DNA of 64,000 nt from Escherichia phage 121/2022-2B. The translations under genes were made by a program, and so were the position numbers. The notes below the pieces were generated by a model. It saw only the letters and a program-made list of their open reading frames with translations, made no database searches and had not been told where the DNA came from. The stretch's first letter is position 1. The number at the start of each line of letters is the position of its first letter. Location of the stretch: sequence record OR958571.1, one strand, 5' to 3'. This document shows, one piece after another, positions 48,416 through 48,827 of the stretch.

Positions 48416-48459
48416 TTAGTACCTTATATAAATTATAATACATTTTATGAAGCTAATAA

Positions 48460-48819
48460 TCAATACGGTTTAGCATCAAATTTTCTTTCAATTTCAGGCG
48501 TAAAATACAATTCTTTACCACGCTTGGAAAAGCGACCAATAATATGATAATTATTCTCATCAAACGTGATATTGCCAATATCCATAGCTTTCAACCAAAT
48601 ATCGATATTTCTGTCAAGCTTTATATCAAAATTCCAATACGGAGAACTATTACCGAAAATACTACAAGCGGATTCAGTGAAACAACTGCTATAAATCTTG
48701 TCTTTAGGAACTACTAATTGATAGACGCCTTTAATAAACTGAGGACCCTGCCATTTTGGTTGTTTCGCGTCTTTTTCTAATAGAATAGGGTAATAATTAA
48801 AATTCATATTTTCCGCCAC
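48460..48819 (-). CDS. hypothetical protein inserted between frd and td
   Basis: 119 codons tightly packed between frd stop and td start; no recognised motif. Confidence 0.5.
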   Translation of the reverse strand: MAENMNFNYYPILLEKDAKQPKWQGPQFIKGVYQLVVPKDKIYSSCFTESACSIFGNSSPYWNFDIKLDRNIDIWLKAMDIGNITFDENNYHIIGRFSKRGKELYFTPEIERKFDAKPY

Positions 48820-48827
48820 GCGTTATT

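Follow-up and report, generated by a model that had tools for sequence, protein, structure and literature searches.

A small accessory gene between frd and td in T-even phages, already catalogued and absent from phage T4

Escherichia phage 121/2022-2B carries, between its genes for dihydrofolate reductase (DHFR; frd) and thymidylate synthase (TS; td), a small open reading frame (ORF) that is missing from the reference phage T4. The analysis covers a stretch of 64,000 nt of its DNA (record OR958571.1; hereafter the window), and the reading frame is called ORF A. It is a real gene, apparently an accessory one long established in the T-even phage subfamily, and would belong to a cassette between the DHFR and TS genes whose fullest form is frd-A-B-C-td and which seems to have been trimmed differently by lineage: T2, T6 and the window retain A only; D5505, ACG-C40 and JS98 retain C only; and T4 retains none of the three. 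We hold this evolutionary and descriptive account with considerable confidence. The overall best explanation, in which the cassette gene additionally encodes a binding protein tied to nucleotide metabolism, we consider evenly poised between right and wrong.

All genes in this region of the window lie on the minus strand. From the frd stop to the td start there are 412 nt (48416-48827, minus strand), and the sole long ORF in this gap runs from 48460 to 48819 (minus strand), or 119 codons if read from a GTG. The original prediction, made from the letters of the window, had described about 410 bp with one ORF at this position and an overlap of frd and td in T4; both statements were borne out. The T4 genes overlap by 4 nt (ATGA; frd at 145109-145690, td ending at 145112), and the window carries 416 bp at the junction that T4 is without. 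The predicted 119 codons are correct from the GTG, but the protein is likelier to comprise the 115 residues (N-terminus MNFNYY) that begin at the ATG at 48807. We take this ATG as the real start because GGCGGA precedes it by 5–10 nt and because deposited genomes in GenBank use the same start, giving a 348-nt coding sequence. The four additional codons are probably untranslated, since no Shine–Dalgarno (SD)-like sequence lies ahead of the GTG and both the homologues and the GenBank coding sequences begin at the ATG. The placement of the ORF inside the thymidylate-synthesis operon also stood, in that ORF A lies in the frd-td transcription unit, and it would be expressed together with both genes.

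The gene is real. Its product matches the phrog_1928 hidden Markov model (HMM) significantly and at full length (E 9.5e-36; residues 8-115 align with positions 2-125 of the 126 in the profile) and is a member of PHROG 1928, a family that distant homologues also match. Homologues at 27–66% identity retain length and frame in other genera. Compared with AugustSocin and T2, ORF A shows 14 synonymous and 0 non-synonymous changes; compared with phage F2, it shows 31 synonymous and 10 non-synonymous changes, corresponding to an omega (ratio of non-synonymous to synonymous rates) of 0.047, where the neighbours frd and td give 0.044 and 0.051 against the same phage; comparisons of frd with AugustSocin and T2, distorted by a one-codon indel, are set aside. 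Purifying selection on ORF A therefore equals that on frd and td in strength, with omega about 0.05. A chance ORF, which was considered, is ruled out by the family match, by the retention of length and frame, and by the excess of synonymous changes.

The family is also widespread. By tblastn, 588 phage records contain a homologue, with identity reaching ≥90% in 362, and the exact ORF A sequence occurs on 341 contigs in public data, always labelled hypothetical protein. Complete T2 genomes, RB14 and RB3 encode exactly the same protein (100% identity), and RB51 encodes a copy at 98.3% identity, the annotation there reading 'hypothetical protein' or 'RB32ORF229c'; T6 (NC_054907), RB18 and RB68 carry the segment as well, with a hypothetical protein annotated. 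Comparison of the frd-td junctions sets T4, without the segment, apart from T2, T6 and these RB phages, which have it. The original prediction's description of the ORF as unrecognised does not survive these results, nor is the segment an insertion peculiar to this phage: the identical protein is annotated in T2, RB14 and RB3, the ORF stands in the standard T-even annotations (T2, T6, RB3, RB14 and RB51), about 360 records hold close copies, and no fewer than eight other genera have family members in the same genomic setting, with T4 as the exception. ORF A belongs to the same family as PHROG 1928 and 'RB32ORF229c hypothetical protein', with no difference from either; PHROG 1928 is without an assigned function, Pfam entry or structure. 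ORF A is, in short, an already catalogued, uncharacterised small phage gene and not a new family.

The location of the family is fixed. In a scripted scan of all fetched loci, every locus that holds a family member (25 of 25) has it flanked by DHFR and TS, in the order DHFR-A-(B)-(C)-TS; these loci span Tequatrovirus and at least eight other genera (at least nine in all). A search of related loci with a 10-sequence alignment yielded 13 loci. Syntenic homologues were found in Jiaodavirus, Mosugukvirus, Gelderlandvirus, Kanagawavirus, Marfavirus, Moonvirus and Winklervirus, in IMG/VR contigs, and in a metagenomic relative in which A, B and C are all present. ORF B follows A in most of the non-Tequatrovirus genera examined. 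Profile comparison with hhalign identifies B as a paralogue in tandem with A (probability 99.4%, E 1.3e-21), from which it is distinguished by an insertion of ~20 residues directly after the conserved QxKW motif; distant B homologues, like those of A, match PHROG 1928. ORF C (68 residues, PHROG 9550) is unrelated to A and B, has no function on record, and completes the arrangement frd-A-B-C-td in Marfavirus VAC36 and in the metagenomic relative.

Outside Tequatrovirus, annotated or called coding regions overlap by 1–23 nt at nearly every junction of these loci, the exception being a 4-nt gap between B and C in VAC36; this pervasive overlap suggests translational coupling from DHFR through TS. 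Divergence between genera also tracks that of the neighbouring enzyme, with identities of 31–46% for A and 42–57% for DHFR, a parallel that fits long co-residence. Two side observations concern the same cassettes: in one IMG/VR locus (L020:2538-3294) the members score as B-like then A-like, opposite to all others, and homologues of C at 42% identity occur in phAPEC8-like phages outside Straboviridae.

Within Tequatrovirus, three alleles occupy the frd-td interval. ORF A alone is found in the window, T2 and T6 (~360 records); ORF C alone in D5505 and ACG-C40 (~135 records at ≥90% identity, which include Dhakavirus phages such as JS98, C being the lone gene between frd and td in these records); and nothing in T4, G28, FL12, FL18 and HY03 (roughly 40 records, extrapolated from rows sampled at even intervals). 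The A-bearing junction is the majority state of the genus and the T4-type junction is rare, its frequency (about 4 of 40 evenly spaced rows) being a rough estimate; a 50-bp junction query discriminates T4-type junctions poorly, as the 9-bp repeat described below lets each half of the query seed. The absence from T4 extends to the whole genome: an hmmsearch with filters off against all six-frame ORFs of the T4 reference detected none of A, B and C (best E 0.39). The corresponding search of the window matched only ORF A itself, with no paralogue elsewhere in it.

The ends of the segment indicate how the T4 junction could have arisen. The window contains two copies of a 9-bp direct repeat, TAAATGAAA, one holding the frd stop and the other the td start codon, whereas T4 has exactly one copy, and the 416 bp between the window copies correspond to the part missing from T4. 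The T4 junction is what would be expected from recombination or slippage between two such repeats flanking the segment, and loss of the sequence between short direct repeats is a familiar route of mutation in T4. Since eight or more other genera have homologues in the same place, presence of ORF A is ancestral at the subfamily level, and T4, rather than this phage, is therefore the derived and exceptional form; the direction of the T4 event, a loss, we infer from this distribution.

The opposite sequence of events would be a recent insertion of A into a T4-like overlapping junction in a T2-type ancestor, illegitimate or homing-associated recombination with another phage being one possible route; TAAATGAAA would have been duplicated in the process, and T4 would represent the older Tequatrovirus state. 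A 9-bp direct repeat at both ends is consistent with such an event, as is the mini-ORF ATGAAATAA beside the frd stop, which reads Met-Lys-stop and resembles a relic duplicate of the td start. Tequatrovirus A is moreover set apart by gaps (20 nt upstream and 44 nt downstream) where other genera have overlaps, it brings its own SD sequence and a promoter-like spacer, and the region is rich in homing endonucleases (I-TevI, mobE and segG). Weighing further against a simple loss, the T4 flanks are mosaic, with an frd 3′ end like that of the C-type allele and a td 5′ end like that of the A-type; within Tequatrovirus, the direction of change, loss or gain, is accordingly not proven. However, insertion would require that a site occupied by the family in 25 of 25 loci was emptied and then refilled by the same family, and the T4-type junction is rare. 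In addition, T4 appears generally trimmed in this neighbourhood. Between frd and frd.1, the window has an 80-residue ORF with no Pfam match (49415-49657, minus strand) and a 111-residue DUF7247 protein (49666-50001, minus strand; E 7.9e-44), and the corresponding T4 interval is a 71-bp gap without either; with these two further ORFs missing as well, the trimming of T4 in comparison with this phage extends to either side of frd. We consider re-insertion unlikely, and retain it as an alternative because of the relic td start, the SD sequence and promoter-like spacer of its own, and the mosaic T4 flanks. A transposable or insertion element was also considered and rejected: the direct repeat is present, but the sole ORF has no transposase or integrase domain.

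What the protein does is addressed chiefly by its conservation pattern and predicted fold. In agreement with the original prediction, which had recognised no motif, scans of A, B and C against Pfam, NCBIfam and PADLOC gave no matches. For ORF A, Pfam returned 0 families at E up to 10, and across 48 family members nothing consistent appeared at E up to 1; sequence-profile searches of the PDB (with 4- and 48-sequence profiles) found nothing below E 0.18. A HMMER search of 1.84 billion protein representatives gave 22 matches (50%-identity clusters), all from phages. Family members have about 95–116 residues and no domain fusions; two longer matches (P0046 and P0048) were rejected as spurious, P0046 being a reverse-transcriptase fragment. 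An AlphaFold run with 4 sequences (predicted local distance difference test, pLDDT, 61.5) was discarded in favour of one with a 48-sequence alignment, which produced a confident AlphaFold2 model (pLDDT 91.6; predicted template modelling score, pTM, 0.85) that nonetheless has no significant structural neighbour in the PDB. The model comprises strands at residues 6-12, 27-34, 48-50, 62-64, 80-82, 86-96 and 99-104, a single helix at 68-76, and a long last hairpin.

The weak structural matches are dominated by the oligonucleotide/oligosaccharide-binding (OB) fold, and include SSB, RPA14/32, RMI, Stn1-Ten1, RuvA domain I, Cdc13, Teb1 and S1 domains. The OB fold, a closed beta-barrel of five strands, runs in the order of three strands, a helix and two strands, with the helix between strands 3 and 4, and the predicted secondary-structure order of ORF A is compatible with that of such proteins (SSB, RPA14/RPA32, RMI1/RMI2, Stn1/Ten1 and S1). 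The conserved aromatic and basic residues of ORF A, in a first long loop and a last hairpin that would correspond to the L12/L45 binding face of OB domains, would add to the likeness. RPA14/32, RMI1/2 and Stn1/Ten1 each pair two paralogous OB domains in a heterodimer, an arrangement reminiscent of the A-B tandem. We tentatively describe the product as OB-like, as a lead and not a result; the fold class is inferred from the model. Invariant or near-invariant alignment columns are L9, Q16, W19, G27, Y29, G91, R92, F93, K95, G97 and F102, and Asp, Glu, His, Cys and Ser are conserved at no position of the family alignment. The isoelectric points of family members are mostly 8–9, that is, mildly basic. 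Because such potentially catalytic columns are missing and the family is mildly basic, the product is probably a binding protein and not an enzyme, a view we favour with some reserve.

The proposed product is thus a small, mildly basic, non-catalytic and beta-rich protein, tentatively OB-like, whose conserved aromatic and basic residues (Q16, W19, Y29, R92, F93 and K95) fall in the first long loop, in strand 2 and in the last hairpin. These residues may form a surface for binding nucleic acid, a nucleotide-like ligand or a partner protein. As for its role, the product would most probably serve as an auxiliary, dispensable factor tied to the DHFR/TS nucleotide-synthesis and replication machinery, and A and B may act as a pair where both occur. 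A predicted tie to the deoxynucleoside triphosphate (dNTP)-synthetase complex is based on gene adjacency and on the overlap of coding regions with frd and td; taken by itself, a specific link to nucleotide metabolism remains rather doubtful. Several points count against it. The placement beside frd and td may simply follow from how rigid gene order is in T4-like genomes, without any functional link; any role in nucleotide synthesis must be dispensable, because T4 grows well without the gene; and a literature search (RB32ORF229c, phrog_1928, the frd-td interval and T-even frd) found no paper on ORF A. In a more elaborate version, A and B would constitute a new fold family dedicated, without catalysis of its own, to partnering the phage DHFR and TS enzymes, either as a bridging scaffold or adaptor or as a tether to single-stranded DNA or gp32 at the replication fork; T4 would have lost it and compensated for the loss. 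In gene position, the bridging form would resemble the junction region of the fused protozoan DHFR-TS. We regard this version as quite improbable.

Other small T4 ORFs offer a further comparison. Like ORF A, frd.1 (DUF5417), frd.2, frd.3, nrdA.1, nrdA.2 and the DUF7247 protein are small, have no assigned function, belong to the same prereplicative cluster and are variably present in T4-like phages. They show no homology to ORF A detectable by hmmsearch of the window and T4, and unlike them ORF A lies directly between DHFR and TS, overlapping both outside Tequatrovirus.

Variable presence is equally what might be expected of a host-takeover or counter-defence accessory, as encoded by many small T-even ORFs of the early or middle class, in which A (and B and C) would bind, neutralise or redirect a host protein or immune sensor and the frd-td position would be historical. 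The family is small, apparently non-enzymatic and confined to phages, with only those 22 cluster representatives in the protein search; it is polymorphic for presence, absence and replacement within one genus, with three alleles; T4 does without it; and tandem paralogues are typical of arms-race gene families. On the other hand, selection within Tequatrovirus is very strongly purifying, with no sign of diversification among the 14 changes noted above, divergence between genera is no faster than that of DHFR, and the location is fixed, with coding overlap with two metabolic genes at each locus examined outside Tequatrovirus. There is also no PADLOC match, although PADLOC models defence and not anti-defence proteins. 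A counter-defence role is the main rival to the preferred explanation, though in our judgement not a likely one. A free-standing homing endonuclease has been proposed by annotation, three BASEL records (AugustSocin, FriedrichMiescher and FriedrichZschokke) labelling ORF A 'putative homing endonuclease', and the presence/absence polymorphism beside td, a known homing target gene, is in keeping with that label. Like the Seg, Mob and Hef endonucleases, ORF A is a cassette of variable presence between conserved genes in an element-rich region; unlike them, it has no nuclease motif or catalytic residues, is smaller, and is inherited vertically and syntenically. No Pfam nuclease family was found for ORF A at E up to 10 or in the 48 members at E up to 1, no nuclease domain or motif (GIY-YIG, HNH, LAGLIDADG, PD-(D/E)xK or EDxHD) is present, there is no PDB sequence match and no nuclease among the fold neighbours, and no Asp, Glu, His or Cys column is conserved that could serve metal binding or catalysis. 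The GIY-YIG and HNH endonucleases of T4 are, furthermore, much larger than 115 residues. Although an empty, T4-type site exists, the family is syntenic across genera rather than sporadic (25 of 25 loci), with divergence parallel to that of DHFR. The endonuclease label is scarcely credible on these grounds, and a non-catalytic binder encoded by a resident cassette gene remains the explanation we prefer.

Coordinates of ORF A, its flanking elements and related copies are collected in Table 1. The td gene of the window (46539-48415, minus strand) contains an intron with I-TevI and is T4-like, yet the frd-td cassette is of the T2 type; in the T2 record AY310907, td is intronless (861 nt). The frd-td locus is mosaic among Tequatrovirus phages. 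The same T2 record, early and partial, leaves its 413-bp frd-td gap without annotation. In phage F2, one extra A right before the frd stop shifts the frame (L012:94-711), and its frd consequently gains 12 codons and runs into the start of ORF A.

Table 1. Features at the frd-td junction of the window and copies of ORF C in other loci.
Feature	Coordinates	Strand	Remarks
frd (dihydrofolate reductase)	48828..49412	(-)	upstream neighbour of ORF A
Left copy of 9-bp direct repeat TAAATGAAA	48826..48834	(-)	holds frd stop TGA 48828-48830
Two-codon mini-ORF ATG-AAA-TAA	48823-48831	(-)	overlaps frd stop; duplicates first two codons of td; partly in left TAAATGAAA
Four extra codons with upstream GTG	48808..48819; GTG 48817-48819	(-)	alternative start
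ORF A	48460..48807	(-)	115 aa from ATG; stop TGA 48460-48462; PHROG 1928 member
44-nt spacer, ORF A to td	48416..48459	(-)	promoter-like elements (prediction)
Right copy of TAAATGAAA	48410..48418	(-)	holds td start codon 48413-48415
td exon 1 (thymidylate synthase)	47864..48415	(-)	downstream neighbour; low-coordinate end of the listed ORF is a stop codon
Group I intron with I-TevI	I-TevI 46998-47735	(-)	after td exon 1
td exon 2	~46539-46853	(-)	after intron
ORF C copies	L011:720-926 (phage D5505); L008:2648-2854; L013:4670-4879		68 aa

The 44-nt spacer between ORF A and td is nearly invariant in T2-type phages, the only difference being 1 nt in the length of a T-run. It holds TTGATT-17-TATTAT and a MotA-box-like ATTAGCTTCA, with TATAAT or TAATTT lying 10 or 12 nt downstream of the latter, and in the RefSeq entry for phage Lutter this spacer bears a promoter annotation. 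The spacer of phage F2 is 13 nt long and has no promoter-like element. T2-type phages may, judging from these elements, have a td-proximal promoter that T4 is without.

As a discovery the gene is a small one, since hundreds of annotated genomes already list its product as a hypothetical protein. Its broader meaning lies in the reference: T4 is not a typical T-even genome at this locus, since it is without a cassette that most of its relatives keep. Four features combine in this family: its place between DHFR and TS is kept strictly across at least nine genera, selection on it matches that on the neighbouring enzymes, its fold is predicted with confidence and has no significant neighbour in the PDB, and T4 supplies a natural knockout. 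It is this combination that makes the family a cheap and well-defined target for functional work.
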